This document shows, in pieces, positions 13,760 to 38,084 of a stretch of 64,000 nucleotides of DNA. The notes beneath the pieces were generated by a model. It was not told where the DNA came from. It made no database searches and worked only from the letters and a program-made list of their open reading frames with translations. Where the stretch lies: positions 32,001 through 96,000 of IMG/VR virus record IMGVR_UViG_3300046839_000055. One strand, given 5' to 3'. Within the stretch, counting starts at the first letter, position 1, and the number at the start of each line of letters is the position of its first letter. Source of the DNA: a virus. Taxonomy: Duplodnaviria; Caudoviricetes. The position numbers and the translations under genes are program-made.

Positions 13760-15856
13760 ATGTACAGCGTAAGTGATGCTTATAAGATTGCCATGAAGCA
13801 GCCAGTACAGCATTTTTCCATGAAGGGAAGCATTGGTGATACCTTTTTTTGTGACGATAACATCCTGTCCGGTTCCTGCCAGATCACCAATCAATGCTCT
13901 GACGATACGATGATTGGTATCGGACAGGTTTATATTGGGCAGATGGACATCACTCTGATGAATCTGGATCTAAAGCGATACTCTCTGAAAGGAGAAAAAA
14001 TCACACCCTTCTTCGGACTTAAGCTTGCGAACGGTACCTACGAGTACATTCCTCTCGGTGTGTTTAATATTTCCGAAGCCCAATGGACACAGTCCGGTGT
14101 CGTGATAAAAGCCTATGACAATCTGTCGCTTTTCGATAAAACCTGCCCGGTAGGCACTACTTTGGGAAAACCGTATGATCTTGCAAAAATGGCCTGCGAG
14201 AGCTGCAAAGTTCCGCTTGCTACTACAGAAGATGAATTTAAGACATTCGCCAATGGTTCTGAGAACTTTTCTCTTTATTCGGAAAATGATATCGAGACCT
14301 GGCGGGATTATCTGTCATGGCTTTCTGCTGCTCTCGGGTGCTTTGTAACCTGTGACAGAGCCGGAAGGATAAAGTTCTGCTCCTACAGTAAGTCTGTCGT
14401 GGATGTAATCGATGAAAGTCATCGGTTCAGCGGAGGCTCTTTCTCTGATTTTGAAACAAGATACACGGGTATTTCCTGTGTGAATCTAAGTGACAAGACT
14501 ACCAGTTACTACGGGATGGATAAGGACGACGGACTGACCTATAACCTCGGCAGCAATCCCTTCCTTCAGTACGGGGTATCGGAAAGCCTTGAAAAGCAGC
14601 GCCGCGCTATCCTTACATCTCTTCAGCAGATCGACTATGTCCCGTTCAAGGTTACGATGATTGGAAACCCTGCATACGACCTTGGAGACGTGCTTTCTTT
14701 TCCGGGAGGGATAGGTGATGCCAATAAGCTCTTCTGTATCACAAAGTACACCTTAAAATACAACGGCTCCTATGAGATTTGGGGTGTCGGACAGGATCCT
14801 TCCCTCGCCTCCGCAAAAAGCAAATCCGATAAAACGATCGCCGGACTGCTTTCGTCACAGACAGACAACGACATGCACTATGTGCTCTACCAGAACGCCG
14901 AAGCCATAAAGATTGACGATGGAAAAGAAGGTTCTGTCATGTCCGTAAAGTTCGCAGTTCAGAAAACCACGCATATCTCCTTCGATATGGAGATACTTCT
15001 GTCGGTTGATACGACGGAAGGCAATGATGCTGGAAATGTCTCGGAGGCAGACGCTTATGTAAAAGCTACTTATTACTTAAATGGTGATGAAATCAGTACA
15101 AGGCATCCTGTGGAAACCTTTCAGGACGGCGAGCACATCCTGCGTCTTCGGTATGAGCTGGAAGCTGTGGAGGCGTCTATTCATACATGGAATGTCGTTC
15201 TGTCCGTAAAAGGCGGTTCCCTCTCGATAGTAAGATACGGCGTTCTCGGAGTCGTAAGCGGCATGGGACTTGCAGGCAACGGCGAATGGGATGGCGAGAT
15301 CACGGTGGAGGATACAATCGATCGTATTCTTATTAGCCGGATAATGAGCCGCTTCTCAGATACGGTGGACATCCGTTTACTTCATGATACACTATGCCTT
15401 GCTGTAGACCGTGTGGCTAGGGTTAATATCGCGTCTATCTTTGGAGGATTTGCAGAGACTGTAGAATCCACTTCCGACATCATGGTTTTCTCGCCGTGGG
15501 CAAACGCTGACAGGGTGACTACTTCCTGTGAAGTAAAGAATAACGGCTGGATCGGCTCCGGCTCTACAACACTAAAAACAAGTCTTTCGGTTACTACCTG
15601 CGCTGTATACGGGGCAAAATATATCACGGCGGATTCAAAGAATGCCATATTTTATATTTCTTTTGACGGCGGTTCTACATGGATGGGCTACGCTGAGAAT
15701 GAATGGAAAGAAAATGTTGCAATGACAGAATCCGATATCGGCGAGATTCCGGAGGATGCCTTAAAACAATATGACCATCTGTCGGTAAAGGCCGTGCTGG
15801 AAAACGACTCGGTTCTTTACGCGATCAATCTATACGGAGGAAGGATACAAAAATGA
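13760..15856 (+). CDS. Tail tip/baseplate hub protein
   Basis: MYSVSDAYK start, EYIPLGVFNI, GNPAYDLGD; tail-module position. Confidence 0.7.
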   Translation: MYSVSDAYKIAMKQPVQHFSMKGSIGDTFFCDDNILSGSCQITNQCSDDTMIGIGQVYIGQMDITLMNLDLKRYSLKGEKITPFFGLKLANGTYEYIPLGVFNISEAQWTQSGVVIKAYDNLSLFDKTCPVGTTLGKPYDLAKMACESCKVPLATTEDEFKTFANGSENFSLYSENDIETWRDYLSWLSAALGCFVTCDRAGRIKFCSYSKSVVDVIDESHRFSGGSFSDFETRYTGISCVNLSDKTTSYYGMDKDDGLTYNLGSNPFLQYGVSESLEKQRRAILTSLQQIDYVPFKVTMIGNPAYDLGDVLSFPGGIGDANKLFCITKYTLKYNGSYEIWGVGQDPSLASAKSKSDKTIAGLLSSQTDNDMHYVLYQNAEAIKIDDGKEGSVMSVKFAVQKTTHISFDMEILLSVDTTEGNDAGNVSEADAYVKATYYLNGDEISTRHPVETFQDGEHILRLRYELEAVEASIHTWNVVLSVKGGSLSIVRYGVLGVVSGMGLAGNGEWDGEITVEDTIDRILISRIMSRFSDTVDIRLLHDTLCLAVDRVARVNIASIFGGFAETVESTSDIMVFSPWANADRVTTSCEVKNNGWIGSGSTTLKTSLSVTTCAVYGAKYITADSKNAIFYISFDGGSTWMGYAENEWKENVAMTESDIGEIPEDALKQYDHLSVKAVLENDSVLYAINLYGGRIQK

Positions 15857-17109
15857 AAGGACATGTGAGTATTGAGCTGCATAATCATCACAGCGGATTT
15901 ACCGAGCGGATCGAACAGGACAACATGGTGACAAACGCGCTTACCTACGCTATGGGCCATGCTGTCTCCTGCGGCGCCAATCTGTCAGACCTGATGCTCC
16001 CGGCGGCAAAAAGGGGACTCGGAGGACTTTTTCTTTTTGACGGGAAGCTGGAAGAAAACGCAGAGAATGTGCATTTTCCCATGGATGTCCATCTGATCGG
16101 GCATGCAGCGCAAACCGTAAATACGGATGATCCCATGCGTGGAAGCCTCAACTCTCTGGAAACAAAGAGGACGGACACCGGGTACGTATCGGTCTGGGAC
16201 TTTTCCACTTCACAGGCGAACGGAAATATTGCATCCCTTGCTCTTACCAGGAATACGGCAGGAGAAGATCCTCTTAAGCTCTATGACGGGGAATCAGCAA
16301 GTACGACGGACTATGAATATGGCCTGGCCTTCGATGAGGATCAGGGCTTTTTATACAAGGCAGATCGCTACGGCAACATCATCCGTCAGAAAGTACCGGA
16401 TTGGAAGCTTCTGGTATCCGACCCATACTGGGGACAGGACGAGAAAGTCACGAATCTTACCGGAACTGACAACTGGGACAACTGGATCATCTCAAACGGA
16501 CAGGACGGATATCTGTATCTTATCCGAATGAACCGGCAGGAACATAGTCGATGGAACGGCAGTGAATATGAAAAGTACTACACCTACGGCGTGGAAAATT
16601 CTTCCGGCAACGCACTTCTTTTTGTAAGGAAATATAAGATCAGTGATTTCAGCTTCACACAGGAAGGCGATGAACAGACGATTGAGCTGTCATCTGTGAC
16701 AGCAAAAAACGACGCCGTTGTGTCAAGAGGATTCTACTACGTGCGAGGTTATGATAACCACAGCGTCTATAAGGTCGAGATGGCAAATCCGGTAAACATC
16801 GTGCTCCTAAACCAGTTCAAGCAGTACGATGTCGGAGGGCTCTACCCCATGTATAACGGCGGTGTGATCACAAACAACGGGCTTCTTATCTACCCGGACG
16901 GATCCTACATCAAAAAGGATAAAGTGGCGATACCGGATTACGGCTACGAAAGCCCTCACTTGTTCAGTTTTCACTACAACAGTTATCCGAAAAAGTCCAT
17001 TCCGTCCTCCTATATCGGAACAATATGCAACCTTTCATCTCCGGTCACAAAAACATCCGCCACTTCAATGAAGGTGACCTATACGCTTACAGATCTGAAG
17101 GAGAACTAA
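15853..17109 (+). CDS. Putative tail fibre/receptor-binding protein
   Basis: VWDFSTSQANGNI and C-terminal LSSPVTKTSATSMKVTYTL framing a variable beta-rich centre. Confidence 0.6.
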   Translation: MKGHVSIELHNHHSGFTERIEQDNMVTNALTYAMGHAVSCGANLSDLMLPAAKRGLGGLFLFDGKLEENAENVHFPMDVHLIGHAAQTVNTDDPMRGSLNSLETKRTDTGYVSVWDFSTSQANGNIASLALTRNTAGEDPLKLYDGESASTTDYEYGLAFDEDQGFLYKADRYGNIIRQKVPDWKLLVSDPYWGQDEKVTNLTGTDNWDNWIISNGQDGYLYLIRMNRQEHSRWNGSEYEKYYTYGVENSSGNALLFVRKYKISDFSFTQEGDEQTIELSSVTAKNDAVVSRGFYYVRGYDNHSVYKVEMANPVNIVLLNQFKQYDVGGLYPMYNGGVITNNGLLIYPDGSYIKKDKVAIPDYGYESPHLFSFHYNSYPKKSIPSSYIGTICNLSSPVTKTSATSMKVTYTLTDLKEN

Positions 17110-18105: not shown

Positions 18106-19071
18106 ATGGAAGTCAGAGGAATTGACGTCAGTCACTGGCAGGGAGCCATTGACTGGGCAAAAGTAAAAGCGTCCGGTATTCAGTTTGCGATTATCAAGTC
18201 TGGTGGATCCGATGCTGGATTCTATACAGATCCCAGATGGGAAGAAAACTATAGAAACGCCAAGGCAAATGGAATCGCTGTCGGAGCATATTATTTTGTC
18301 GGGCCTGGCTGCACTTCCGCAGCAGACGGAAAGGCAGATGCAGAACGCTTCCTTGCACAGCTCAAGGGAAAGCAGCTCGAATATCCTGTCTTTATTGATC
18401 TGGAAGCCACTGCTCCTTCTGCCAAGGCAGGCGCTACGGAAGCTACGATTGCATTCTGCCGAGCACTGGAAGCGGCTGGATATTTTGCAGGGATTTACAG
18501 CTCCACCGATTCCGGTTTCCGCGAGAGACTGGATGATTCCAAGCTCATGCCATTCACACATTGGGTCGCTCAGTATGCTTCCAAATGTACCTATGGTGGG
18601 GCTTACGGAATCTGGCAGTATTCTTCCACCGGCTCAGTAAACGGTATCAGCGGAAACGTCGATATGGATATTTCTTACATCGACTATCCGTCCACTATTA
18701 AGACCGGCGGATTCAACGGATTTGCAAAGCAGCAGGCTCCTGCTCCCACTCCGGCACCAGCGCCGGCAAGAAAGAGCGTGGATGAAATCGCCCGTGAAGT
18801 TCTGAGCGGTTCCTGGGGAAACGGAGACGACAGGAAGAACCGTCTTGCTGCTGCCGGATACAGCTATGACGCAGTTCAGGCAAGAGTCAATGAGCTGATG
18901 GGAGCCCATAGCCAGCCGCAGGTAACTTATTACACTGTGCGCTCTGGTGACACCCTCTCTGCTATTGCAAGGAAGTATGGTACATCCGTCGGTGCAATTC
19001 AGGAACTCAATCCTACGCTGATCCGAAATGTGAACCTGATCCAGGTTGGATGGAAAATCCGCGTAAAGTAA
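18106..19071 (+). CDS. Endolysin: GH25 muramidase + CW_7 + LysM
   Basis: [22 protein letters not shown]; EIAREVL.G.WGNG..R; [13 protein letters not shown]. Confidence 0.95.
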
Positions 19072-20705: not shown

Positions 20706-20753
20706 TAATACGGGCCCCCAGAGGGATGTATAGTGACGGAAAGGAGTGATTTT

Positions 20754-22544
20754 ATGGCAAAGATCACAAAGATTGAGCCGACGATACCGAGCTTACCTAC
20801 TCGTAAGAAAGTCGCCGCTTATGCCAGAGTTTCTATGGAGACCGAAAGGCTCCATCATTCCCTGTCCGCACAGATCAGCAGCTACAGTAAACGGATTCAG
20901 GATAATCCTGAATGGGAGTATGTTGGCGTTTACGCGGACGAAGGGATCTCCGGAACAGGCACAGAAAAAAGGCCTGAGTTTCGGCGCATGCTTGCCGACT
21001 GCGAGGATGGAAAAATCGATATCATCCTCACAAAGAGCATCAGCCGGTTTGCCCGGAACACCGTAGATCTTCTGAATACGGTCCGACACTTAAAGGAGCT
21101 CGGCATTGAAGTCCGCTTCGAAAAGGAAAACATCAATTCACTCTCCGGCGACGGCGAGGTGATGCTCACGCTCCTCGCATCTTTTGCGCAGGAAGAAAGC
21201 GTCAGCATCAGCAACAATGTAAAATGGGGGATCCGCAAACGGATGCAGTCCGGCCTTCCTTATGCCAATGGTCACATGAACGTCTACGGCTATCGCTGGG
21301 AAGGCGACGAAATGGTCATCGTACCAGAAGAAGCCGCCGTCGTAAAGAGAATCTTCCAGAACTTTCTGGATGGGAAGTCGCGGCTGGAAACAGAACGGGA
21401 ATTTGCCGCTGAAGGCATTACTACCCGCCAAGGTTGTCGCTGGGAGGATTCCAACATTCGAAAAGTGCTGGAAAACGTCACCTACACCGGAAACATGCTT
21501 TTTCAGAAGGAATTCGTCTCGGATCCCATCAACAAACATCGCAGGAAGAACCGCGGCGAGCTTCCACAATATTTCGTAGAGAATACCCACGAAGCGATCA
21601 TCGATTATGACACATGGAAATACGTGCAGGATGAAATGGAACGACGCAGAGAACTCGGGCCTCTGGCGAATAAGAGCCTGAACACCTGCTGCTTCACCGG
21701 CAAGATTAAATGCCCATACTGCGGATACAGCTATATGCATGAGCACAGAACGAAGAACGGACATTATCAGGAATTCTGGGTCTGTGGCAGCTATAAGAAA
21801 AAGAAGAAAGGCAATGGATGCCCTGTCGGCGGCACAATCAATCACAAGAATCTGAAGAAAGTCTGCGCGGAAGTGCTGGGTCTTCCCGAATTTGATGAAA
21901 ACATCTTTCTCGAAAAGGTTGATCACATCGATGTTCCCAAGCGGTACGTCCTTACGTTTTATCTGAAAGACGGAACAACAATAACAAAACCGTGTCCGAA
22001 TACCAGCCATCAGGATTGCTGGACCGCAGAGTATCGGGCAGAAACTTCACGGAAGCGCCGGAACAGCCCCAGAGCCAAAGGTGTGACCGCCCTCTCCGGG
22101 CGAATCAAATGCTCTGCCTGCGGCTGCAACTTTCGCCGCTGCACGCAGCCTGCTTCCAATCCGGCCAAACCGAAGATGCACTACTGGCGTTGTGCCGAAC
22201 ACAGCAATGGATGCATTACCGTCGGATTGCGCGAGGATGTTTTGAAACCGCTCATCGCTGAAATGATGGAGATCCCGGAATACGACGAAGAGCAGTTCAA
22301 AAATCAGATGGAAGCCATCTATGTAATGGACAAGGATCTTCTTGAATTTCATTTCAAGGATGGACGCATCAAGACTACACACTACGTTCCTCCGGAGAAA
22401 ACCTTCACTCCACGCAGTGAGGAAGCCAGAGAACACATGCGGCAGCTTATGAAAGATAGATGGACGCCAGATCTTAAAGCTGAGATGGGCGAGAAGATGA
22501 AAAAGATAAGGAGCGAGAAATATTGGAGCAGCAAAAGAAAGTAA
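20754..22544 (+). CDS. Large serine recombinase 1
   Basis: AYARVS, YADEGISGT, TKSISRFARN; recombinase domain; two zinc ribbons. Confidence 0.95.
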   Translation: MAKITKIEPTIPSLPTRKKVAAYARVSMETERLHHSLSAQISSYSKRIQDNPEWEYVGVYADEGISGTGTEKRPEFRRMLADCEDGKIDIILTKSISRFARNTVDLLNTVRHLKELGIEVRFEKENINSLSGDGEVMLTLLASFAQEESVSISNNVKWGIRKRMQSGLPYANGHMNVYGYRWEGDEMVIVPEEAAVVKRIFQNFLDGKSRLETEREFAAEGITTRQGCRWEDSNIRKVLENVTYTGNMLFQKEFVSDPINKHRRKNRGELPQYFVENTHEAIIDYDTWKYVQDEMERRRELGPLANKSLNTCCFTGKIKCPYCGYSYMHEHRTKNGHYQEFWVCGSYKKKKKGNGCPVGGTINHKNLKKVCAEVLGLPEFDENIFLEKVDHIDVPKRYVLTFYLKDGTTITKPCPNTSHQDCWTAEYRAETSRKRRNSPRAKGVTALSGRIKCSACGCNFRRCTQPASNPAKPKMHYWRCAEHSNGCITVGLREDVLKPLIAEMMEIPEYDEEQFKNQMEAIYVMDKDLLEFHFKDGRIKTTHYVPPEKTFTPRSEEAREHMRQLMKDRWTPDLKAEMGEKMKKIRSEKYWSSKRK

Positions 22545-24106
22545 GAACCATTCCGGCCACGCTGACCCGGTTCACTTCTTCCCCGATCGAGGAGAAAAAG
22601 AAGCGCCGGGTCGCCGGATATGCCCGCGTCTCGACTGATCATGACGATCAGTTCACAAGCTACGAGGCGCAGATCGACTACTACACGAATTATATCAAGA
22701 TCCGTGATGACTGGGAATTCGTCAGGGTTTACACCGACGAAGGTATCACCGGCACCAGCACGAAGCACCGCGAAGGGTTCAAACAGATGGTTGCGGATGC
22801 GCTGGCCGGAAAGATCGACCTGATCGTTACGAAATCCGTCAGCCGTTTTGCACGAAACACGGTTGATTCCCTCACCACCATCCGGAAGCTGAAGGATAAA
22901 GGAGTCGAGTGCTATTTTGAGAAGGAAAATATCTGGACCTTCGACGGCAAGGGCGAGCTGCTTATCACGATCATGTCCTCGCTGGCACAGGAGGAATCCC
23001 GCAGCATTTCCGAGAACTGTACATGGGGACAGAGAAAGCGATTCGCTGATGGCAAGGTCACGGTTCCCTTTAAGCGCTTCCTCGGGTACGACCGCGGTCC
23101 GAATGGCGAGCTGATCGTAAATAAGGAACAGGCAGAAACGGTAAAACACATCTACGACATGTTCCTGCAGGGACGGACGTATCACGGAATTGCCAAGACA
23201 CTCACCGAGGAAGGTATCAAATCACCGGGCGGCAAGGATCAGTGGAGCCAGAGCTCCGTCAAGAGCATTCTCAGCAACGAGAAATACAAAGGCGACGCCC
23301 TGCTCCAGAAATCCTACACCGTCGATTACCTGACGAAGAAAACCAAGGTGAATGAAGGCGAGATCCCTCAGTACTACGTCGAAGGAAATCACGAGGCGAT
23401 CATTCCTCCTGAAAAATTCGACATGGTACAGCGGGAAATGGCGAAACGCGGTAAGGGCAAAAAATACCACAGCGGTGTGCATCCATTCTCCAGCAAGATC
23501 AAGTGCGGCCAGTGCGGAAGCTGGTACGGCTCGAAGGTCTGGCATTCGACAGACAAGTACCGCCGGACGATCTGGCAATGCAACCACAAGTACGATGGCG
23601 GCGAGCGCTGCTCCACTCCTCACCTGACTGACGAGCAGATTCAGGATGCCTTCCTGTCGGCGGCAAACAAGCTGCTGGCCACAAAAGACGCAGTCATCGC
23701 CAACGGCAAGGCAATGCTGACGCTCCTCTTTGATACCTCAGAACAGGAAGCCGAACGTGACAAGCTGCTGGAAGAAGCGCAGGTTGTTTCCGATGCTGTT
23801 CAGAAGAACATCTACGAGAACGCCCATGTTGCCCTCGACCAGAAGGCTTACCAGAAAAAGTACGACGGCCTGACCGGACGGTACGAAACGCTCAAGACCC
23901 GCATCGAGGAGCTAAACGACCAGATCAGCCAGCTGCAATCACAGAAAGGCAGCGTCGAGGATTTCCTTGCCGCCTTTGAGAAACTGCCGGAAACCCTGAC
24001 CGCGTTCTCCCTTGACGCATTTAACGCCCTGACGGATTACCTCACGGTCAATGGCGAGGGCGACATCAGCGTAACCTTCCGCAACGGCCAGACCATCAAG
24101 GCATAA
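22523..24106 (+). CDS. Large serine recombinase 2
   Basis: GYARVST, YTDEGITGT, TKSVSRFARN; CGQCG ribbon; coiled coil; TTG start. Confidence 0.95.
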   Translation: MEQQKKVRTIPATLTRFTSSPIEEKKKRRVAGYARVSTDHDDQFTSYEAQIDYYTNYIKIRDDWEFVRVYTDEGITGTSTKHREGFKQMVADALAGKIDLIVTKSVSRFARNTVDSLTTIRKLKDKGVECYFEKENIWTFDGKGELLITIMSSLAQEESRSISENCTWGQRKRFADGKVTVPFKRFLGYDRGPNGELIVNKEQAETVKHIYDMFLQGRTYHGIAKTLTEEGIKSPGGKDQWSQSSVKSILSNEKYKGDALLQKSYTVDYLTKKTKVNEGEIPQYYVEGNHEAIIPPEKFDMVQREMAKRGKGKKYHSGVHPFSSKIKCGQCGSWYGSKVWHSTDKYRRTIWQCNHKYDGGERCSTPHLTDEQIQDAFLSAANKLLATKDAVIANGKAMLTLLFDTSEQEAERDKLLEEAQVVSDAVQKNIYENAHVALDQKAYQKKYDGLTGRYETLKTRIEELNDQISQLQSQKGSVEDFLAAFEKLPETLTAFSLDAFNALTDYLTVNGEGDISVTFRNGQTIKA

Positions 24107-24111
24107 GGAAA

Positions 24112-24155
24112 GCTCCTCACCACTGGATTTCTCCGGTGACTGGGGAGCCTTTTTT
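24112..24155 (+). terminator. Terminator after the recombinases
   Basis: GCTCCTCA...TGGGGAGC stem followed by a T run. Confidence 0.7.
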
Positions 24156-24164
24156 CGTTTTCAA

Positions 24165-24938
24165 CTAATCCCAATTAATAAGATCAACCAACTTAAGTGG
24201 CTTTTTGCATTTAGGGCAAATCATGCCATTTTTCTTTTCATAGCTTGATTCCGGGACAACAGTCATTTTGCCGCCACATTTTTCACATCTGTGGTCATAC
24301 TCCGCATACAGATCATAATATTCCTGCATGTCGTAACTGGTTACATATGAAGCGTCCTCAAACGGAAAAGCTACTGACCACCTTCTTCCTTTTTCTTTTG
24401 GCGGTCGTTGCTTATCCTCTTTCGGTACATACGCATTCAAAATCGGTCTGGAATCATACTCACCGCAATCGCAGCATTGCAAAATAACGACCTCTGGATC
24501 AATCGCGGCATCTGGATGAGCGCTTAATAACTCCTTGAGTTCATTACCAAACTCTCCGTTTTTTGCTGCTTCGATGGTTTCCTCATAAACTTTAGGATCA
24601 AAAAACAGAGCGGTAATCAACTTCTGTTTTTCCGGGCTGAGACGCTTGAGGCAGGTTAGCATTTTTTCGATCATCACGGCCTTAATCGCGGCATCGTCCA
24701 CATCTTCGTCATCGGAGGGAAACTGCTTGTTTCCCTCCAGAAGCCGTTCGTATGAGTCTTCTCGGCTGGGGAGATATGTAACAGTTCCGCTGGTGGAATC
24801 GATTCGGCATCGCTCGGCTTTGATGTCATACTGCAGGTATTCCATCTGACGGTCGCTCTTTTCTAAAACCTCAATGATTTCTTTGCTCACACCGGGATAT
24901 TTTGCTTGATAATCCGTTATTTTCTGATATTTTGCCAT
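24165..24938 (-). CDS. Chimeric ORF: 5' part of a sigma-70 region-4-like gene fused to the 3' part of a Zn-ribbon gene
   Basis: ...SYERLLE..KQF...KRLSPEKQKLITALFFD switches to PKVYEET...CCDC...CEKC...CPKC at AT 24597-24598. Confidence 0.8.
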   Translation of the reverse strand: MAKYQKITDYQAKYPGVSKEIIEVLEKSDRQMEYLQYDIKAERCRIDSTSGTVTYLPSREDSYERLLEGNKQFPSDDEDVDDAAIKAVMIEKMLTCLKRLSPEKQKLITALFFDPKVYEETIEAAKNGEFGNELKELLSAHPDAAIDPEVVILQCCDCGEYDSRPILNAYVPKEDKQRPPKEKGRRWSVAFPFEDASYVTSYDMQEYYDLYAEYDHRCEKCGGKMTVVPESSYEKKNGMICPKCKKPLKLVDLINWD

Positions 24939-25490
24939 AGTGTCTGTCATCCATCTCGTGATTGTTGAAATCTGAAAATGAAAAATAAGCGACGGAACTC
25001 GGCAGCATGATATAACTGCAAGCAAAAAAACAGGAACGTACTTGTGAGCACGGTTGCCCACAGGTATGCTCCTGTAAATTATTTCATATTTTATCTGCTC
25101 TGATGGTTCGTGCTGCTGCCCGCGCTGTTTCCTTGAAAAGCACAGGTTTTTTTGACGAGCTATCGGTTAGAAAAGCGGTGTGTAGCGGATTGTGATCCGT
25201 TGCATCACGCTCGACCGCTACTTAATAGCGGTCGCCTGAAATTCATGGTAAATTGAGCAGACATAGAAACCCTCCAGACTGGTGAGCTTGAAGGGTTACG
25301 GTATTGCTTATTCAGGCATGAAGATAGACCCGCCAAACTCACGCTTTTTTGTAGCGCTTTTTTTAATTTGATCGAAACAAACGAATTGCGCCGCGTGAAA
25401 AAACACCATCTAATAGCTGTATATCTCCCTTGGCAATGATCAGCCCAAGTCCAGTTCCTTTTTCAGTATTGAAGGTCGGCATGATTCATC

Positions 25491-26876
25491 TCAATTGTCG
25501 TGCGGGCCTTCATCCAACTTTTTTATCGCTTTTCTGAATTCTTTCGCAAACACAATACCAGTACAGATCACCGCAGCAGTATCTGAAATCGGTTCGGCAA
25601 GATACACGGCTACTGTCTTATCAGGTAGCAGCATGGGGAGAAGATAGATGAGTGGGACCAACATGATAAATTTTCGGAATACTGCTACGAAAATTGAAGC
25701 CTTGGCATTCCCGAGGGAGATAAAGGTCATCTGGCAGGCTATCTGAACGCCCATAATAAACATGGCACCGGCGTAGATACGTAATGCACTTTTAGTATAC
25801 GCCACCATTGCGGTATCATTTGTAAATAATGAGGCAAAAACCTGCGGAAATATCTGCACGGCAACCCACAGCAATACGGAATAGGTACAGCAACAGATCA
25901 AAAGCAGTCGAAAGGTCTGCTTGACACGAGCTGAATTGTGAGCACCAAAGTTGTAGCTGAAGATCGGCTGAGCACCTTGCGCAAAACCCTGCATCGGCAG
26001 CATGGCAAACTGCATCACAGTGCTCAGAATCGTCATGGCACCCACGGCAATATCTCCGCCATATTTCAGCAAGGAGGAATTGAAGCAGATAGAAATGATG
26101 CTTTCGCTTGCCTGCATTATAAACGGAGCTGCACCCAGTGCTACGCAGGACAGAAGGACATTGTCAAATCTGATATTTTTCATCCGGAGCTTGATGCTGC
26201 TTTTTGGGGAAGTGAGAAAATGAATTACCCACACGCAACTGATTCCTTGAGATATGATTGTCGCCAGAGCTGCTCCGCGCACCCCCATGTTCATGCCGAA
26301 GATCATGATTGGGTCAAGGATAATATTACAGATTGCCCCGATCAAAACCGTGTACATGCTTACTTTTGCATAACCCTGCGCCGTGATAAATGCATTCATG
26401 CCCAAGGTTAATTGTACAAAGACGGTACCAATCGCATAGATGTTCATGTACTGGGATGCATAGCCGATGGTGTTTTCACTGGCCCCAAACATTAAAAGCA
26501 AGGGTCGGTTCCAAATTAGCAGGGCTGCGGTAAGCACAGCGGAGATTACAAGCTGCAAGGCAACGCAGCTGCCCATAATGTGCTCGGCTCCCTCGTCGTT
26601 TTTTTTGCCCATCTCAATGGAAGCATTGGGCGCTCCTCCCATCGCAACCAGCATGGCGAAAGCCGACACGATGATAATGAGCGGTGTGCACACGCCCAGA
26701 CCGGTAAGCGCCAACCCGCCAACCTCTGGCATATGGCCGATGTAGATACGATCCACAATGTTGTATAGAACATTGATCAGTTGGGCAAGAATTGCTGGTA
26801 CAGAAAGGCGAAACATAAGCGGCCTGATTGGTTCTGTACCGAGGAAACTCTTATCTTCATTATGTGCCTTTTCCAT
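25491..26876 (-). CDS. MATE family efflux transporter (MepA-like)
   Basis: LYNIVDRIYIG, NIILDPIMIF..NMGVRGAALATIISQ; about 12 hydrophobic segments. Confidence 0.93.
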   Translation of the reverse strand: MEKAHNEDKSFLGTEPIRPLMFRLSVPAILAQLINVLYNIVDRIYIGHMPEVGGLALTGLGVCTPLIIIVSAFAMLVAMGGAPNASIEMGKKNDEGAEHIMGSCVALQLVISAVLTAALLIWNRPLLLMFGASENTIGYASQYMNIYAIGTVFVQLTLGMNAFITAQGYAKVSMYTVLIGAICNIILDPIMIFGMNMGVRGAALATIISQGISCVWVIHFLTSPKSSIKLRMKNIRFDNVLLSCVALGAAPFIMQASESIISICFNSSLLKYGGDIAVGAMTILSTVMQFAMLPMQGFAQGAQPIFSYNFGAHNSARVKQTFRLLLICCCTYSVLLWVAVQIFPQVFASLFTNDTAMVAYTKSALRIYAGAMFIMGVQIACQMTFISLGNAKASIFVAVFRKFIMLVPLIYLLPMLLPDKTVAVYLAEPISDTAAVICTGIVFAKEFRKAIKKLDEGPHDN

Positions 26877-26905
26877 AATTGTCCTCCGTTTCTTTTGTCT
26901 TTCCA

Positions 26906-27358
26906 TCAGTCCGTTGATTCTTTCGGTTTCACGTTGTAGAAGCGGCGGACATTGTCAATGATTCGATCAAAAGAGTCGAAGAACTGCCTTTTCTCATCTT
27001 CCGAAAACCCGTCACCGATCTTTTTCATGAATTCTTCCTGTTGTTCTTGCCCATAACGGACTATCTCATCGGCCTTTGGAGTAATAAACAAACAAATCCG
27101 CTTTCTATTCGCCGAGTCTACTTTTTTGCAAATGTACCCTTTTTTATAAAGCTCGTCTGTCGCCAGTGAGACGTGAGATTTGGATATTTTTCGTACAGAT
27201 ACAATATCGGCAGCCGTATTAAGGCCGCCGTTGTTCGCAAGGAATAACATAACATCTACTTCTATTGCCGAGAGAGAATATTTGTTCATAACTTTTCTGC
27301 GGTGAAAATTATAGGCGCTTTCAACTTCTTTGAGCATGTTCAAAAAATTGTTTTTCAT
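26906..27358 (-). CDS. MarR family regulator
   Basis: SKSHVSLATDELYKKGYI....D.ANRKR winged helix; coupled to MATE. Confidence 0.9.
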   Translation of the reverse strand: MKNNFLNMLKEVESAYNFHRRKVMNKYSLSAIEVDVMLFLANNGGLNTAADIVSVRKISKSHVSLATDELYKKGYICKKVDSANRKRICLFITPKADEIVRYGQEQQEEFMKKIGDGFSEDEKRQFFDSFDRIIDNVRRFYNVKPKESTD

Positions 27359-27383
27359 ATGTAATTACCTCACGCACCTTAGT

Positions 27384-27433
27384 GTTCGATTTTGAACACG
27401 TAAAATTATAGTTCAAAATCGAACGGTTGTCAA
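27384..27433 (-). promoter_or_regulatory. Consensus sigma-A promoter with double palindromic operator for marR-MATE
   Basis: TTGACA (27433-27428), 17 nt, TATAAT (27410-27405); inverted GTTCGATTTTGAAC at 27384-27397 and GTTCAAAATCGAAC at 27411-27424. Confidence 0.88.
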
Positions 27434-27715
27434 GACGAAAATCTGATAGGGCATGTTTTAAAATGCTAATTCGATAGGGTTATCTTAGATGGTGAGCATA
27501 AAAAAATAATTACTTTTTCCTTATTGAAAAAATCATTTCCCAATCAAACCAGCAAACGTTTTGACCCCACGTCATGTTCAGGTGTTCCTCGGAGTTGTGC
27601 CGCACTCGCCATGTTCTACATTACCATACGAACAATACTAATTGTCCCTATTTTACTATCATCTCCAAAGGATAGCTCCCCCTCGCCTTTATGCAGCGAG
27701 GGGGAGCCGAGAGCT

Positions 27716-27901
27716 TCATTCATTCATGAGTCTTTTTAATTTCGCCAAGATTTTTATCTTTCGGTCGTGAATGGTCCGCTGTGGAACACCAGTTTCTCTG
27801 GACACCTGATGCTCGCTTTTATTATATAAAAAACCAACACCAACATTTGCGCCAAAACTGTATTTACAATCTGGGCACTCCCAGCCATATCCCATTCCCA
27901 T
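27716..27901 (-). CDS. Chimeric ORF: 5' part of the Zn-ribbon gene fused to the 3' HTH of the sigma-like gene
   Basis: MGMGYGWECPDC...GVGFLY then NKSEHQVSRETGVPQRTIHDRKIKILAKLK. Confidence 0.8.
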   Translation of the reverse strand: MGMGYGWECPDCKYSFGANVGVGFLYNKSEHQVSRETGVPQRTIHDRKIKILAKLKRLMNE

Positions 27902-27913
27902 AAAATCAACTCG

Positions 27914-29278
27914 CTATTCAAAGACAACTATGTAATCCGCAGTCATATCATCAAATGTTGTATCGACCGAAGCAATTACCTCATTTAGTTCTTCATACAA
28001 AATGCCGCGCACATATGCATCTCTGGCATTTGGCTTGTCAAGCAGCACCCATTTCAACTGTTGATATGAATATTTTGCGAAGGCAATCCACTGCGGATAG
28101 TTAATTGCCATCGGATTCTGCGTAAAATAAACCTTCCCGGCATTAACAGCTGTTGCAGCCGAGTGGCCTATAAACAGCATTGTTGCGAGCTTGGGATGCT
28201 TTTCGCGGTTCAGGGAAAATGGAATTGACTCTTTTACAGAATGTCCTTCCTTAATGCGCTTGAAGGCATATCCAATCCGGGTTACTACTTCTACAATCAT
28301 TACCGGAATCGAAAGCGTGCAGAAATGTATAAAGTCATACCCCTCGTAATACATGCCCTGCACGATTTCCGCTATGGTCTGTTCGTACTCACCGATTTTC
28401 CCAAATTGCAGAAGATTAAACAGTGCCATCATAGGAGCCGGTAGTCCCATTGATGTCGTGATATCCGATTTGAAATGTATGATCTGCTTGGCTATAGCTG
28501 CAAAAACATCTGTCTCCTTGCGGTCAGCATAATTCTCCATAACCTGAACTACAATCTTTCCGGTTTTATCAATGGTGGTCATTCTCCCAGTAAGAATATC
28601 TGCCACACCAAAAATCAATCCAAGCAATGGATCGTGACCAAGAGAAAGCAGGCGATGGTAATATGCAGAAAGCCCGTCAACATACTGCGTAGTGTTCCGG
28701 TTATCCTGAGCGTCGTATGGAACCTTGCTGACCTTCGAGTTTGCCAACTTCTCCATTTCCTCTTCAGGAAATTTCTTATCGAACCAGTCTCTTACATAGT
28801 TGGCCAGTGTCCCACCTTTTAACCCATCTGGAGTTTTCTGCGGAATGCCTACCAACAAAACATCAACAGCCGCTCCAAGCAGACCAGCTGCAACACTGAT
28901 TGCAATGTCATATTTGTCCAGATGGTGCAACTGATTATACTCAGCATTTAGCATCCGGATTTCTTGGCTGTTGCGCTTCAGCTCTGCTTCTGTAAAAATT
29001 GATTCAAGCGGATGCCCCGTGCCTACAGAGTTTTCCGCTTCAAGGCATAGTTGCTCCCAAGAAGGTACCACCATTACCTTTTTTACTACATCGTGCTTTG
29101 GTACCGTCGGCATTTCTGTATACCCCAACATACGGAGCAAGTCTTCACTTTCCTGAATCCTTTTATCAAGCTCGGTCGTTGAAGGCATAGTAGCCTTAAT
29201 CTTCTTAAGCTCCTCATCTTGGTATTTTAGAACATCATTTATCTGTTGTTCAGTTTCAGAATACTTGTATTTACTCAT
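27914..29278 (-). CDS. Uncharacterised membrane-associated protein
   Basis: 454 aa; hydrophobic hairpins; HRLLSLGHDPLLGLIFG segment. Confidence 0.75.
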   Translation of the reverse strand: MSKYKYSETEQQINDVLKYQDEELKKIKATMPSTTELDKRIQESEDLLRMLGYTEMPTVPKHDVVKKVMVVPSWEQLCLEAENSVGTGHPLESIFTEAELKRNSQEIRMLNAEYNQLHHLDKYDIAISVAAGLLGAAVDVLLVGIPQKTPDGLKGGTLANYVRDWFDKKFPEEEMEKLANSKVSKVPYDAQDNRNTTQYVDGLSAYYHRLLSLGHDPLLGLIFGVADILTGRMTTIDKTGKIVVQVMENYADRKETDVFAAIAKQIIHFKSDITTSMGLPAPMMALFNLLQFGKIGEYEQTIAEIVQGMYYEGYDFIHFCTLSIPVMIVEVVTRIGYAFKRIKEGHSVKESIPFSLNREKHPKLATMLFIGHSAATAVNAGKVYFTQNPMAINYPQWIAFAKYSYQQLKWVLLDKPNARDAYVRGILYEELNEVIASVDTTFDDMTADYIVVFE

Positions 29279-29669
29279 CGTCAGCCTTCTTTTTTTCAAG
29301 CTCTGCGATCTGATTCTTCAGTTCCTGAATCTCTGATTGCAAGCCGCTCATCTCTTTCTTTAATCTGGAATCATAAGCAAGAAGCCGATCTTGTCTTTCT
29401 TTGTCCATCTCAGCCTTGGCATCCAGTTCCTTTATAACAGCATTGTGTTTTGCAAGAGCCTTTTTATAAAGCTCCTCCTTTTCCTCAGCCTGCTTTTGGT
29501 ATTTTCTGATTAAAAAGAATGCACTTATTGTCGCAGGCAATCCAGTCAAAACGCCTATCTGAAAGTTCCGATCTTTCACGACATCAACGACTGCTTTCCC
29601 CGCCTTTACCAAACCGTCACCAGCCTTATCAAGCATGGGTGCCAGCTTATTTAAATTGAATTTGCTCAC
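29271..29669 (-). CDS. Uncharacterised TM + coiled-coil protein
   Basis: Single hydrophobic segment, then EKEELYKKALAKHNAVIKEL. Confidence 0.75.
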   Translation of the reverse strand: MSKFNLNKLAPMLDKAGDGLVKAGKAVVDVVKDRNFQIGVLTGLPATISAFFLIRKYQKQAEEKEELYKKALAKHNAVIKELDAKAEMDKERQDRLLAYDSRLKKEMSGLQSEIQELKNQIAELEKKKADDE

Positions 29670-29683
29670 CGCTTCTCCTCACT

Positions 29684-30262
29684 TTATGCAACTCCTAAAT
29701 CATGTTGCAAATCCTTGATAGCCTGCTGTAACAGAATATTGAGACTCTGCAGATAATCCATTCGTTCCTTGTCTGCATCAGCTTCTGATTTCATAGCCTT
29801 AATAATAGCCTCGTGTTTTTTCAGCGCCTCTTTGTATAAACGCTCTTTTTCCTGTCTAAGCTGTTTATTCTTCAGATGAGAGGCAACACCAACGCCTGCA
29901 GCAGCGAGACCGGCTACCGGAGCAGCGAGCACAAATACGCCAGCAACCATACCACCTCCGACAAGGGCTCCTGCCGTAGCCAAACCGGACGTAATACCTG
30001 CTGCTGAGAGTCCAACAACTCCGAGCCCATAAAGCGCTGCAAAGGAACCCACTCCACCAATACCAGCACCCAGCGCACCGGCCAGCACTTCTGGAATAGC
30101 ACTTTCTCTTATAGTGCGATTCTTATCATTTAGTGCCTCCGCAGCCTCATTCACAACATTAACGACAGACTGCATAGATTCAACACTCTGAAAGTTCATG
30201 TCCTTTTTCTTTTTGACATAGGTATCCTTTTTCTTGGATATATCCTTTTTGCTTTCACTCAT
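29684..30262 (-). CDS. Uncharacterised glycine-zipper + coiled-coil protein
   Basis: Long G/A-rich hydrophobic tract, then EKERLYKEALKKHEAIIKAM. Confidence 0.75.
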   Translation of the reverse strand: MSESKKDISKKKDTYVKKKKDMNFQSVESMQSVVNVVNEAAEALNDKNRTIRESAIPEVLAGALGAGIGGVGSFAALYGLGVVGLSAAGITSGLATAGALVGGGMVAGVFVLAAPVAGLAAAGVGVASHLKNKQLRQEKERLYKEALKKHEAIIKAMKSEADADKERMDYLQSLNILLQQAIKDLQHDLGVA

Positions 30263-30267
30263 GGTGT

Positions 30268-30456
30268 TCACCTTCCATTTTCCTTCTGAAGTATCCTCGG
30301 CAAAGTCTCCAGAAAATGTTTTCCTATTTTCTCGGCATCATAATCGTAAGCCTCACAGATAAACCGAAGCCCATCCGGCGTGAGAATCCGACCGTTATTT
30401 CTATCTTTACACAGCTGCTCATAATCTGCCAGCTGCTTCTTTGTTATTGTCGGCAT
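30268..30456 (-). CDS. Small hypothetical protein
   Basis: GAGGT RBS; 62 aa; first gene of the operon. Confidence 0.6.
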   Translation of the reverse strand: MPTITKKQLADYEQLCKDRNNGRILTPDGLRFICEAYDYDAEKIGKHFLETLPRILQKENGR

Positions 30457-30570: not shown

Positions 30571-30596
30571 TTACGGTCAGGCAACCTTAAATTGTA

Positions 30597-30758
30597 TTAA
30601 ATACGGCGTCTTAATTTCATATTTATGAGCTGCGCCTGAATCAATGTCGGAATCAATTTGTTCAATGCCACATGATGTCGGTCAGAAATCTTCTGCAGAT
30701 CCACAAGAAGACTTTCCTCAAGATCAATAGCAACCTGCTTTGTAGGCTCTTTTTCCAT
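30597..30758 (-). CDS. Small RHH/CopG-like protein
   Basis: KQVAIDLEESLLVDLQKIS...LNKLI pattern. Confidence 0.45.
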   Translation of the reverse strand: MEKEPTKQVAIDLEESLLVDLQKISDRHHVALNKLIPTLIQAQLINMKLRRRI

Positions 30759-37046: not shown

Positions 37047-38084
37047 TTAGCGCAATCCACAAAGTCTTGCCATTTCATCTTCGTTGCCCTCCCACATTGG
37101 TGCTTCATCAGATACAGGTGTTGGAACAGATTCCATTGCGTCTCTAAGCTGTTCAACCGATGGCTTTGCATAGTAGCTTTTGGTTGTATCAGTTCTGGCA
37201 TGTCCTAATACTGTAGAAACAAGCTCAATGGCGATTCCATCCTGATAAAGATTTGTGGCTCTGGTCCGGCGGAACATGTGACAGTGAACCGAATTCGGAA
37301 GGCTAATCCCTGTTTCACTGACAAGAGCTGCATATTTTTTTATAATCCGCTGGACATTTCCAACGGACATCCTGTCTGTTACACCTTTTATCGTTGTGGA
37401 AAATAAATATGCTTCTTTGGAAGAATTACTGTGATATACACGTATATATTCCCTAAGGTGTTCGACTGCTTTAGCTGTTAATTGTATGGTTCTCTCTTTG
37501 TTACCTTTGCCGGTTATGAAAATATTGGGATATTTTGATTCCATTGCGATATCACATAAGCGAATGTTAAGCAGCTCACTGATTCTTACAGCTGTATCGT
37601 AGAGAAGAATCAAAATAGCACGGTCTCGTACACCGAATTTCGTATTCGGCGGTGCGGACAGTATTGCAGCAAGTGCATCATCGGACAGAATAGGTTTTTC
37701 TTTTTTAATGGTTTTGCATGGTGAGATCTGACTGATTGCCAGGGCAACTGATTGGATTGATATGTCCATATCCGAGGCATAGTTCAGATAGGCACGGATA
37801 GCCGCAACTCTTACATTTACAGTGGATGGCTGGCTGCCATTTGCAAGCAGATATTCTCTAAAATTATAAATACATTCTTTGGTGCAATCGGAAAACTGAA
37901 AGGTACTTATGGACTTACCTAATTCACCTACAAGGTAGTTTTTAAATATTGTAAGGGAATCCCTGTAGGATTCTGCTGTAGCCTGACTGCGCCCGGCCTG
38001 CTTTACCAAATAAACATTTAGAAAGTTCCATGTTTGAGAAAAGAACAGCTGGTCAGTCGATATCTTTGCTGATTTATTCTTCAT
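37047..38084 (-). CDS. Tyrosine recombinase, RitC-like
   Basis: AVRISE, GKGNKER, HMFRR, LGHA...T..YY. Confidence 0.93.
   Translation of the reverse strand: MKNKSAKISTDQLFFSQTWNFLNVYLVKQAGRSQATAESYRDSLTIFKNYLVGELGKSISTFQFSDCTKECIYNFREYLLANGSQPSTVNVRVAAIRAYLNYASDMDISIQSVALAISQISPCKTIKKEKPILSDDALAAILSAPPNTKFGVRDRAILILLYDTAVRISELLNIRLCDIAMESKYPNIFITGKGNKERTIQLTAKAVEHLREYIRVYHSNSSKEAYLFSTTIKGVTDRMSVGNVQRIIKKYAALVSETGISLPNSVHCHMFRRTRATNLYQDGIAIELVSTVLGHARTDTTKSYYAKPSVEQLRDAMESVPTPVSDEAPMWEGNEDEMARLCGLR

Follow-up and report, generated by a model that had tools for sequence, protein, structure and literature searches.

Pseudo-SCC elements are SCC-type cassettes that carry no recombinase and are mobilized by the CcrAB pair of SCCmec; SCC itself uses one fixed attB in rlmH. 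Tn5398 of Clostridioides difficile is a mobile resistance element that also lacks a recombinase and is thought to borrow co-resident functions (PMC4430133). Unconventional circularizable structures, or translocatable units, were described by Palmieri et al. 2013, as cited in PMC7843796. Multi-targeting large serine recombinases have been described from genomes at large scale (bioRxiv 10.1101/2021.11.05.467528), and for TndX the dinucleotide GA is the only requirement (PMC4430133).

We analyzed a 64,000-nucleotide stretch of viral DNA (the window) in which a prophage with tandem large serine recombinases, LSR1 and LSR2, carries a recombinase-less unit in one of its cargo genes. Our preferred reading, held with evenly divided confidence, is that positions 24598 to 27824 are a non-autonomous circularizable cassette that was inserted in trans, probably by phage recombinases.

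The inserted unit and its junctions

The unit (24598 to 27824, minus strand) measures 3,227 bp when one AT is counted, interrupts the gene for a 169-aa zinc-ribbon protein, and is absent from two relatives (L001 and L183). Its order is sigma-like C-terminal part, MarR gene, MATE gene, a 550-bp upstream region and sigma-like N-terminal part. The MATE family efflux transporter (471 aa; 25491 to 26906, minus strand) matches MatE at 1.6e-44 and TIGR00797 with 195 bits, and the 150-aa MarR family regulator (26906 to 27358, minus strand) matches MarR_2. An inverted-repeat search located a perfect 14-nt, operator-like palindrome upstream of the MarR gene (I3, 27384 to 27424), and a terminator hairpin (I5, 27675 to 27707) follows the sigma-like C-terminal part. 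The MarR, MATE and sigma-like ORFs are the only ones in the unit, in which Pfam and NCBIfam searches found no recombinase or transposase domain.

At either end of the unit is a gene chimera. One ORF (27901 to 27716, minus strand) encodes 26 zinc-ribbon residues, to GFLY, and then NKSEHQ and onward of the sigma region-4 HTH. The other (24938 to 24165, minus strand) encodes 114 sigma-like residues, to LFFD, followed by zinc-ribbon residues beginning PKVYEE. As the original prediction held, swapping the parts at the AT (27825-27824 and 24598-24597) restores two uninterrupted, in-frame coding sequences, one for a 169-aa protein that has four CxxC motifs and one for a 149-aa protein. The zinc-ribbon gene, the last of the prophage cargo operon, thereby regains its 5' part (residues 1 to 26; 27825 to 27901, minus strand; assigned from the ORF and junction comparison) and its 3' part (residues 27 to 169; 24165 to 24597, minus strand; assigned from homologues). 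The sigma-like gene is composed of 113 N-terminal codons plus 2 bases (24598 to 24938, minus strand) and 35 C-terminal codons with the region-4 HTH (27716 to 27824, minus strand).

Each rebuilt protein has full-length homologues, and those of the chimeras are confined to the lineage with this insertion. For the zinc-ribbon protein, the homologues are P0001 to P0007; the intact protein P0134 is identical to the reconstruction. That exact sequence is present in 215 index blocks, and 38 blocks hold the chimera, one of them a 2.78-Mb contig. The sigma-like family has 179 homologues with a modal length of 149 aa, two of which (P0055 and P0118) are identical across the junction. Its intact homologue P0013 scores 26.1 bits against Sigma70_r4 (cut-off, 24.1), and no match to sigma region 2 was found for the sigma-like protein, the TIGR02937 score being under the cut-off. 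Judged from these profile matches, the 149-aa protein is best called a sigma-like region-4 protein, and the best reading of its gene is a Tn916-Orf7-like sigma region-4 regulator gene.

We compared four sequences around the AT. The distal junction, J1 (27824 to 27825), where the zinc-ribbon N-part meets the sigma C-part, reads ..TTTTTTAT-AT-AATAAAAG, and the proximal junction, J2 (24597 to 24598), where the sigma N-part meets the zinc-ribbon C-part, reads ..TTTTTTG-AT-CCTAAAG. The empty site of L001 and L183 reads ..TTTTTTAT-AT-CCTAAAG, and the intact sigma-like gene of L002 reads ..TTTTTTG-AT-AATAAAAG. These sequences fit one crossover within the AT, with mismatches on either side. Both junctions are reciprocal and in frame, the AT is the sole shared sequence, and no bases were lost or gained; insertion was conservative at a short core identical in both partners, and target sequence was neither duplicated nor lost. 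The reciprocal chimera pattern is far beyond chance. With exact junctions and no recombinase domain within, the discrete, conservatively inserted 3.2-kb unit of the original prediction is borne out. The imperfect inverted repeat claimed for the circle junction has the score originally given (9 of 13); across the 64-kb window, however, 78 positions score as high, so the repeat is uninformative on its own.

Circular or tandem forms, empty sites and reuse of the breakpoint

The original prediction called for an empty site and a circle junction. Empty sites are present in the same prophage backbone (L001 and L183). One contig (L005), whose ends overlap by 55 bp and whose period is exactly 3,227 bp, is circular or tandem; in another (L265), the unit wraps by 82 bp, although tandem copies can also yield circular contigs, and a tandem dimer of the unit (L091) shows that arrays could give assemblies of both these types. 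The unit is 99% to 100% identical in MAGs labeled Clostridia, Lachnospiraceae, Oscillibacter and Eubacterium. In two ICE-like contexts (L003 and L010), it is bracketed by two sigma copies, in the order sigma-MarR-MATE-sigma, so plain homologous recombination would release it; the mosaic switch points of these loci lie away from the AT. In contrast, the flanks of the unit in the window share the AT only and have no long direct repeat.

Other insertions at the same sigma AT were also found, as anticipated. The breakpoint is joined to three further flanks (L097, L099 and L196), which gives four targets when the window is counted, with one junction visible in each of the three. In L097 and L099, it is the sigma-side breakpoint of the distal junction that is joined to another flank; in L097, this flank is a MerR/zinc-ribbon gene that is intact in L182, 1,289 bp past LSR2. 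In L196, the breakpoint lies in a DUF697 gene, 977 bp past an LSR2 with 79% protein identity. The AT, the sole identity at the window switch point, is also compatible as the core in the L097/L182 and L196/L187 comparisons, and no clear common motif is present in the four target sequences. The reading frame is open across all five junctions seen, and all four insertions point the same way with respect to the recombinase genes. Of the four targets, three (that of the window among them) are 0.5 to 1.3 kb downstream of homologous tandem serine-recombinase pairs, an association that is biased because L196 was located by searching recombinase loci. Likewise, three of the four are situated between LSR2 and a gene for a 62-aa protein, in three related phages.

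The AT is not the only place at which the circle opens. Full-period insertions in L009, L011 and L095 break it at three other positions, with 2 to 3 identical bases at the crossover and 10 to 14 bp of imperfect similarity around it. A site-independent route therefore exists as well, and the AT was rejected as the exclusive breakpoint of the unit. The dinucleotide is also palindromic, which is atypical for a serine-integrase core. One feature of serine-integrase att sites, an identical 2-bp crossover in both partners, is present, and another, a non-palindromic core that sets polarity, is absent. Because AT is palindromic, orientation should not be fixed for a serine integrase; the junction of the phage itself uses GA.

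Such observations could also be explained without a dedicated enzyme. Homologous recombination between sigma copies would release the same circle, and short-homology illegitimate recombination or a host topoisomerase would insert it. The T-run and A-run around the AT would then be a mere hot spot, and selection for the efflux pump plus counter-selection of lethal insertions would shape the pattern. The sigma-MarR-MATE-sigma arrangement of L003 and L010, with switch points away from the AT, agrees with this explanation, as do the exact one-period insertions at three other circle positions and targets that are all dispensable defense-type genes (SMODS/AGS_C, GmrSD_N, DUF697 and MerR/zinc ribbon). 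Circularizable structures of this kind are in the literature, to the extent reported in PMC7843796 (citing Palmieri et al. 2013). However, of 3,227 possible positions, four independent junctions fall on a single dinucleotide, and homologous recombinase pairs lie at most 1.3 kb from three of the four targets. It is also unusual for illegitimate recombination that every event is perfectly conservative and reciprocal. We regard this explanation as unlikely, although it is the most probable of the alternatives.

Far less probable is that the unit is the remnant of a larger element that lost its own recombinase by deletion, or that it forms an excision-dependent switch of the sigma regulator. The original prediction had favored the latter as an inverse skin-type switch, which finds no support; excision was not seen in the filled lineage. 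Nothing speaks for either idea beyond the rebuilding of the regulator upon excision. Against them, independent copies in circular, tandem and inserted form all have the 3,227-bp period, and none of 25 near-identical loci revealed a longer form with a recombinase. Moreover, empty and filled alleles were never found at the same phage integration site, and the contig has neither a second sigma copy nor an obvious target regulon.

The neighboring recombinases and a possible mechanism

LSR1 (603 aa; 20733 to 22544, plus strand), with Resolvase, Recombinase and Zn_ribbon_recom domains, is the leading member of the tandem pair, which lies at the prophage's right end. LSR2 (527 aa; 22523 to 24106, plus strand), identified with Pfam, ends 491 bp before the proximal junction and has 544 confirmed relatives in viral contigs; homology among relatives stops just past its terminator, near 24148. 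A GH25/LysM lysin gene (18106 to 19071) precedes LSR1, and the order lysin-LSR1-LSR2 is common to all empty and filled relatives. Beyond the unit, the rest of the cargo operon (27914 to 30456, minus strand) comprises genes for proteins of 62 aa (30268 to 30456), 195 aa, 132 aa and 461 aa. The 461-aa protein matches PADLOC BnzB at 3.4e-68, and by this similarity the operon is a Bunzi-like defense module. In 29 of 79 relatives the 62-aa gene keeps synteny with LSR2, and the gap between the two varies from 64 bp to 3 kb.

The prophage right end (30590 to 30619), where the integrase arm ...ACGGCGTCTTAATTTC meets the host, is conserved across loci. The identical end (30619) abuts at least 11 different host flanks in 17 loci, with a constant GA retained; it is conserved with other flanks in 21 relatives, and the filled phage is present at four host sites. 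Because one prophage end is joined to at least 11 host flanks, the phage integrase is multi-targeting. The original prediction had linked the unit to these recombinases in trans. That link is strengthened, as homologous pairs neighbor three of the four AT-type targets and the integrase is demonstrably multi-targeting, but the notion of a dedicated partner fails: LSR1 and LSR2 are the integrases of a prophage that has an end of its own at 30619 and a junction of GA type. Compared with the arm of this phage, the sigma right arm agrees at only 7 of 13 positions, a similarity that is not significant (about 6% of random positions score as high); the best family member gives 9 of 13.

The relation between phage and cassette could also be reversed. 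The sigma AT would then be a true bacterial attB, the zinc-ribbon, MerR and DUF697 sites would be attP, and the window would be a double lysogen or a phage-circle fusion. The topology is equivalent, the single junctions in L097, L099 and L196 could be prophage ends, and in a 158-kb contig the unit is flanked by two related phage regions that share one orientation. Yet the real prophage end lies at 30619 beside the 62-aa gene, with its at least 11 host flanks, and the three putative attP sites share no sequence even though the LSR2 proteins are 79% to 91% identical. Furthermore, only 1 of 80 recombinase loci abuts a sigma gene, the zinc-ribbon N- and C-parts together are exactly the intact gene of L183, and more distant zinc-ribbon homologues are not adjacent to recombinases. 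We consider this reversal very improbable.

Another site-specific recombinase might instead have acted in trans. Candidates are enzymes of the ICE family that is the usual home of the sigma gene: a Tn916-type tyrosine integrase (with a staggered 6- to 7-bp overlap) and a separate serine recombinase in the window (49145 to 50815), either of which would recognize a T6-N6-A4-like sigma site. Tn916-type integrases use targets of the T-run/spacer/A-run type, which both the sigma site (TTTTTT-GATAAT-AAAAG) and the zinc-ribbon site (TTTTTT-ATATCC-TAAAG) resemble. Tyrosine integrases are near sigma homologues in L003 and L006, and the recombinase at 49145 to 50815 is of the multi-targeting type and holds the only DUF4368 domain in the window; with Pfam, this domain was absent from LSR1 and LSR2. 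On the other side, the targets in L182 (..GACGGACT-AT-AAGAATC) and L196 (..AT-TATCCACTGG) have no T or A runs, and these candidates are not constant neighbors of AT-type insertions, as the tandem pair is. Their involvement is improbable.

We therefore return to insertion by the phage recombinases. That recombination at the cassette site is probably due to the resident enzymes rests on association, namely the three of four AT-type targets beside LSR1-LSR2 homologues. A phage integrase is the probable mover because the same two-base crossover is used at several other phage sites. In brief, the circle would originate in ICE-like donors by recombination between the two sigma copies that flank the unit, and the tandem large serine recombinases of the phage would insert it in trans, with the sigma site as their attP-like partner and sequences of weak similarity as pseudo-attB sites. 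Here, the cassette entered the last gene of the defense-cargo operon by one conservative, reciprocal crossover at its own sigma AT. Only insertions into the non-essential slot that separates the integrase from attP would be seen, since those elsewhere would kill the phage. The insertion would be stable without a directionality factor, and the phage would now carry the efflux cassette to new integration sites.

A broader proposal, which we offer tentatively, is that temperate phages of Clostridia with promiscuous tandem serine integrases capture recombinase-less circles shed by ICEs. An attP-like mimic in the regulator gene would serve this capture, and the stretch from LSR2 to the 62-aa gene would act as an integron-like gene-capture platform. 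Such a platform would explain both the variable defense cargo and the spread of a phage-borne efflux cassette across families. If phage integrases do insert the cassette, then host-derived circles without a recombinase can be acquired by temperate phages at pseudo-sites and travel with them to many hosts and integration sites. Efflux and resistance genes could spread by a route that is neither transduction nor classical transposition, and the well-known, unexplained variability of cargo beside phage integrase genes would have a mechanism. Even with a repeat-born circle and illegitimate integration, a 3.2-kb MarR-MATE unit is nearly identical across several Clostridia lineages and is documented inserting exactly into defense genes.

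Comparison with known systems

The interruption recalls skin in sigK (SpoIVCA) and other gene-interrupting prophages, in that it is precise, of serine-recombinase type, and such that excision would restore the gene. Unlike skin, the element has no recombinase, the regulator gene is on the mobile element itself and is split by integration, and regulated excision was not seen. Integron gene cassettes are likewise small, recombinase-less circles in one orientation, arrayed as cargo beside a recombinase gene. However, insertion here is inside coding sequences and not at attI, the neighboring recombinases are of the serine type and not tyrosine IntI, and repeat and inverted-repeat searches found no attC hairpin-type repeat or structure at the unit.

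As with TndX of Tn5397, TnpX of Tn4451 and the Cp36 clade, the phage end is joined to many targets, with a dinucleotide alone kept, and its GA is the same dinucleotide as that of TndX (PMC4430133). Those enzymes move their own element, whereas the cassette encodes none; moreover, the cassette crossover is AT, not GA, and DUF4368, a domain typical of that clade, is missing from LSR1 and LSR2.

Unconventional circularizable structures, as represented in PMC7843796, also have no recombinase, and they share with this system long direct repeats in the donors (in L003 and L010, the duplicated sigma gene plus upstream region), a circle (putative here) with one repeat copy, and resistance-type cargo. 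In contrast to that account of them, the window flanks share the AT only and one breakpoint recurs with unrelated targets, which is not expected from repeat-mediated homologous recombination. Like Tn5398, the cassette has no recombinase of its own; unlike Tn5398, for which no circular form is known and which carries oriT sites, it has circular or tandem forms.

With pseudo-SCC, the cassette has in common the missing recombinase, a putative circular form, presumed transfer by a large serine recombinase pair encoded elsewhere, and conservative insertion beside or inside resident elements. CcrB is the best model for both LSR1 and LSR2, at 154 bits against a cut-off of 900; the two are prophage integrases without Ccr-level similarity. 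Where SCC uses its fixed attB in rlmH, it is the cassette site that is fixed here, and the targets vary, with four for the AT breakpoint.

Two interrupted genes and their reconstruction

Two open reading frames on the minus strand of the window each combine parts of two unrelated genes. In one (27901..27716, 61 aa), a zinc-ribbon N-terminus leads into a sigma region-4 helix-turn-helix (HTH); the other (24938..24165, 257 aa counted from the ATG) begins as a sigma-like protein and ends with the remaining zinc-ribbon part. When the halves are exchanged at an AT dinucleotide (27825-27824 and 24598-24597), two proteins result, one of 169 aa with four CxxC motifs and one of 149 aa, and both keep the reading frame, as originally predicted. 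Between the two junctions lie a MATE transporter gene (25491-26906), a MarR gene (26906-27358) and two non-coding stretches. This 3,227-bp sequence (24598-27824) is referred to as the unit. Consistent with the claim that it carries no recombinase, domain searches of the sequence between the junctions found neither a recombinase nor a transposase domain. The unit corresponds to no Rfam family, contains no internal repeats beyond the MarR operator and a terminator, and had no match in collections of plasmid or phage records.

When the C-terminal zinc-ribbon part was used as a query, full-length proteins of 159-181 aa were recovered that run continuously through the junction (G-F/M-x-x-P-x-V-Y), and the exact reconstructed protein (P0134) is recorded in 215 index blocks. 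The N-terminal sigma-like part recovered 179 proteins, almost all of 149 aa. Two database proteins (P0055 and P0118) consist of both sigma halves of the window, identical across the junction, and an intact homologue exceeds the Pfam Sigma70_r4 threshold. The chimeras are confined to the lineage with this insertion, where they are common (38 blocks, contigs up to 2.78 Mb). Because the reconstructions have full-length homologues and the chimeras are lineage-bound, the homology test by which the original prediction could have been refuted favours an insertion. Both chimeras lie on one strand; therefore, the topology is that of an insertion, and an inversion was rejected. Assembly chimeras were likewise rejected, because both junctions occur on long contigs from many samples. 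Several 129-aa sigma variants proved to be frameshifts, not junctions, and a search for longer fusions of the sigma N-terminal part to another gene returned only sigma genes extended upstream.

Empty sites, circular or tandem forms and other copies

Two contigs, L001 (Logan) and L183 (IMG/VR), have the same backbone as the window, with LSR2, the second of the prophage's two tandem large serine recombinases (22523..24106, plus strand), on one side and a gene for a 461-aa protein on the other. In both, the zinc-ribbon gene is unbroken (..TTTTTTAT-AT-CCTAAAG..). The intact sigma junction is found in L002, with 100% identity to the window halves. When the four sequences are compared, the switch falls within the AT; mismatches occur on both sides, and no base is lost or duplicated. 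The zinc-ribbon gene of L001 also contains an unrelated IS4-family element (DDE_Tnp_1; L001:1041-2709), bordered by an 11-bp duplication, GGTGGTCAGTA.

The 3,282-bp contig L005 has an exact 55-bp terminal overlap, and its 3,227-bp period matches 24598-27824 exactly. L265, from a different study, wraps around the same circle by 82 bp, and L091 holds two tandem copies of the unit. These assemblies show either a circle or an array of tandem copies.

Copies of the MATE gene with 99-100% identity occur in metagenome-assembled genomes labelled Clostridia, Lachnospiraceae, Oscillibacter and Eubacterium, as well as in roughly a dozen metagenome contigs. We defined classes of copies by placing every copy of the unit on the circle. 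In L003 and L010, which have ICE-like surroundings, two sigma copies bracket the unit, with 87-90% identity in the resident copy and mosaic switch points situated away from the AT. The unconventional circularizable structure, as outlined in PMC7843796, has the same architecture. In L009, L011 and L095, exactly one period lies within another gene (SMODS/AGS_C, GmrSD_N and one unnamed), with the circle broken at 27620-27, 27578-80 and 25327-31, respectively, and 2-3 identical bases at the switch. From these three non-AT insertions it follows that some site-independent route works too. The alternative that the circle was born from repeats and integrated illegitimately is less likely than insertion by a recombinase; the recurrence of the AT described below speaks against it.

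The remaining copies are bounded by insertion sequences (IS) or rearranged (L098; L002, L094 and L008; L268). L098 was rejected as an additional AT-type event because its copy is IS-bounded: at L098:1951-6540, two IS copies (432-aa transposase) bracket one cassette at circle positions 27821 and 25061, a composite-transposon-like structure. The contig ends of several loci (L007, L090, L092) fall at the same 25061. L002, L094 and L008 were not counted as separate boundaries, because one IS-like end is common to all. On a 324-kb contig (L268:1-9700), the distal junction of the window (zinc-ribbon N-part to sigma C-part) is joined to the right-hand junction of the L011 insertion (circle position 27578 to the GmrSD gene). 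The prophage body is absent from this contig, which looks like a rearrangement between two cassette copies in one genome.

The AT hot spot and the prophage cargo slot

Three further loci (L097, L099 and L196) have the sigma gene broken precisely at the AT of the window and attached to other sequences, as anticipated if the same site is reused. The AT is a genuine hot spot, with four junction classes on one dinucleotide among 3,227 circle positions. It is not an exclusive one. The proposal of an att site within the sigma gene is supported in that four junction classes share the AT, but not by L009, L011 and L095, which break elsewhere. The imperfect inverted repeat originally noted at this site was confirmed (9/13 matches), but it carries no weight because 78 window positions score equally.

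The flank of L097 is 98% identical to L182, where the sequence forms an intact MerR/zinc-ribbon gene, located 1,289 bp downstream from an LSR2 gene whose protein is 91% identical to that of the window. The L196 target, a DUF697 gene, lies downstream of an LSR2 with 79% protein identity, at a distance of 977 bp, although this association with recombinases carries ascertainment bias; L187 has an intact homologue of the gene in the same place. In the window, the junction is 491 bp from LSR2. The L099 flank, of just 87 bp, had no match, and exact-pattern scans of viral contigs returned nothing new beyond the L196 record itself. In all AT-type cases, the unit is oriented alike with respect to the recombinase genes, and the AT falls on codon positions 2-3 (TAT or GAT). 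The frame is open across each junction seen. Coupling sequences of the Tn916 type were rejected, because T/A runs are absent from the other targets.

A prophage occupies the left part of the window. It has terminase, portal, capsid and tape measure genes and a GH25/LysM lysin, after which come LSR1 (20733..22544, plus strand) and LSR2. A Mu-like transposase (rve, Mu-transpos_C) and the next gene lie amid its tail and head genes (7101-9181). Downstream of the recombinases is a convergent operon. Its first gene, a conserved one of 62 aa and a candidate directionality factor, keeps synteny with LSR2 in 29 of 79 relatives, across a gap of 64 bp to 3 kb that contains differing genes. Given this variation in length and gene content, the gap is a variable cargo slot, and the 62-aa gene marks a cargo hot spot between integrase and attP. 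The window cargo is a Bunzi-like module plus the zinc-ribbon gene, and the 461-aa protein matches BnzB (3.4e-68).

Among 80 LSR2 relatives (L182-L261), cargo at this position includes a MerR/zinc-ribbon gene with a JukB-like gene, DUF697 and Bunzi-like genes. The Bunzi-like defence module of the window (27914-30456) comprises 62-, 195-, 132- and 461-aa genes with the zinc-ribbon gene; the 195-aa protein weakly matches BnzA. In L170 and L171, the same module, its zinc-ribbon protein 68-73% identical, neighbours a type I restriction system but no recombinase.

The right end of the prophage was fixed to the base at 30619 (30590-30619). Across 17 loci, the identical end, (N)GAAATTAAGACGCC..., is attached to no fewer than 11 unrelated flanks, and 21 relatives conserve it. 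This makes the integrase system a multi-targeting one that leaves a constant GA. The same behaviour is documented for TndX (PMC4430133), and multi-targeting large serine recombinases have been described as a class at large scale (bioRxiv 10.1101/2021.11.05.467528). A phage attP inside the zinc-ribbon gene was rejected, because the phage ends at 30619 and distant zinc-ribbon homologues occur in other contexts. The left end, wanted for rebuilding attP, was not located by arm symmetry or by inspection of positions 15-17 kb in the 158-kb contig that holds the window. Phages with the cassette occupy four host sites, and phages without it occupy seven others; thus, the filled phage moved, or was inherited, with its cargo.

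Several host flanks (loci L267-L285) fall within N6-methyltransferase genes (hsdM, BREX pglX). At the presumed left border (contig 15556-15948) is a 130-aa ORF, unrelated in sequence to the sigma-like gene of the cassette, whose HTH-like end was judged by eye alone. Right of the window (contig 118000-158223) is a second related prophage region in the same orientation, with early genes, terminase, a lysin (154923-155870) and a serine recombinase at the contig end. Between the two phages are conjugation-type genes (relaxase, TopoIII, VirB4, VirB6) and a further DUF4368 serine recombinase (window 49145-50815). A tyrosine recombinase trio (recombinase-in-trio element) interrupts a RadC/ArdC gene (window 37047-40940), with further copies in both phage regions (contig 27209-30447 and 133059-136297).

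A possible route of insertion and related systems

The simplest account that covers the empty sites and the circular or tandem forms, the copies elsewhere, the targets and the recombinases has four steps. Duplicated sigma genes in ICE-type donors would recombine to form the circle; the promiscuous serine integrases of the phage might then take the sigma site as an attP-like partner; the circle would insert at sequences of weak similarity; and an insertion would survive only where it fell in the dispensable interval from integrase to attP. We give recombinase-mediated insertion of the cassette about an even chance. Its weaknesses are that the AT core is palindromic and the phage's own core is GA, and that the targets have no shared motif. 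Between the sigma site and the phage's own end, the arm similarity is 7/13, a value reached by about 6% of random positions. The three non-AT insertions and the bias attached to L196 also weaken this account. Action of another recombinase in trans is unlikely.

No evidence of excision was found at any locus examined. The originally proposed inverse skin switch is not supported: the element has no recombinase, excision was not seen, and the contig has neither a second sigma copy nor an evident regulon. A switch or a remnant, taken jointly with a reversal of roles, seems unlikely.

Because the locus lacks defining features of each system compared (a fixed attB, a long flanking repeat in the window, DUF4368 and attC), it is a member of none of them. 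Its likeness is functional to recombinase-less SCC-type cassettes moved by CcrAB, to unconventional circularizable structures and to Tn5398, and in enzyme behaviour to TndX and TnpX.
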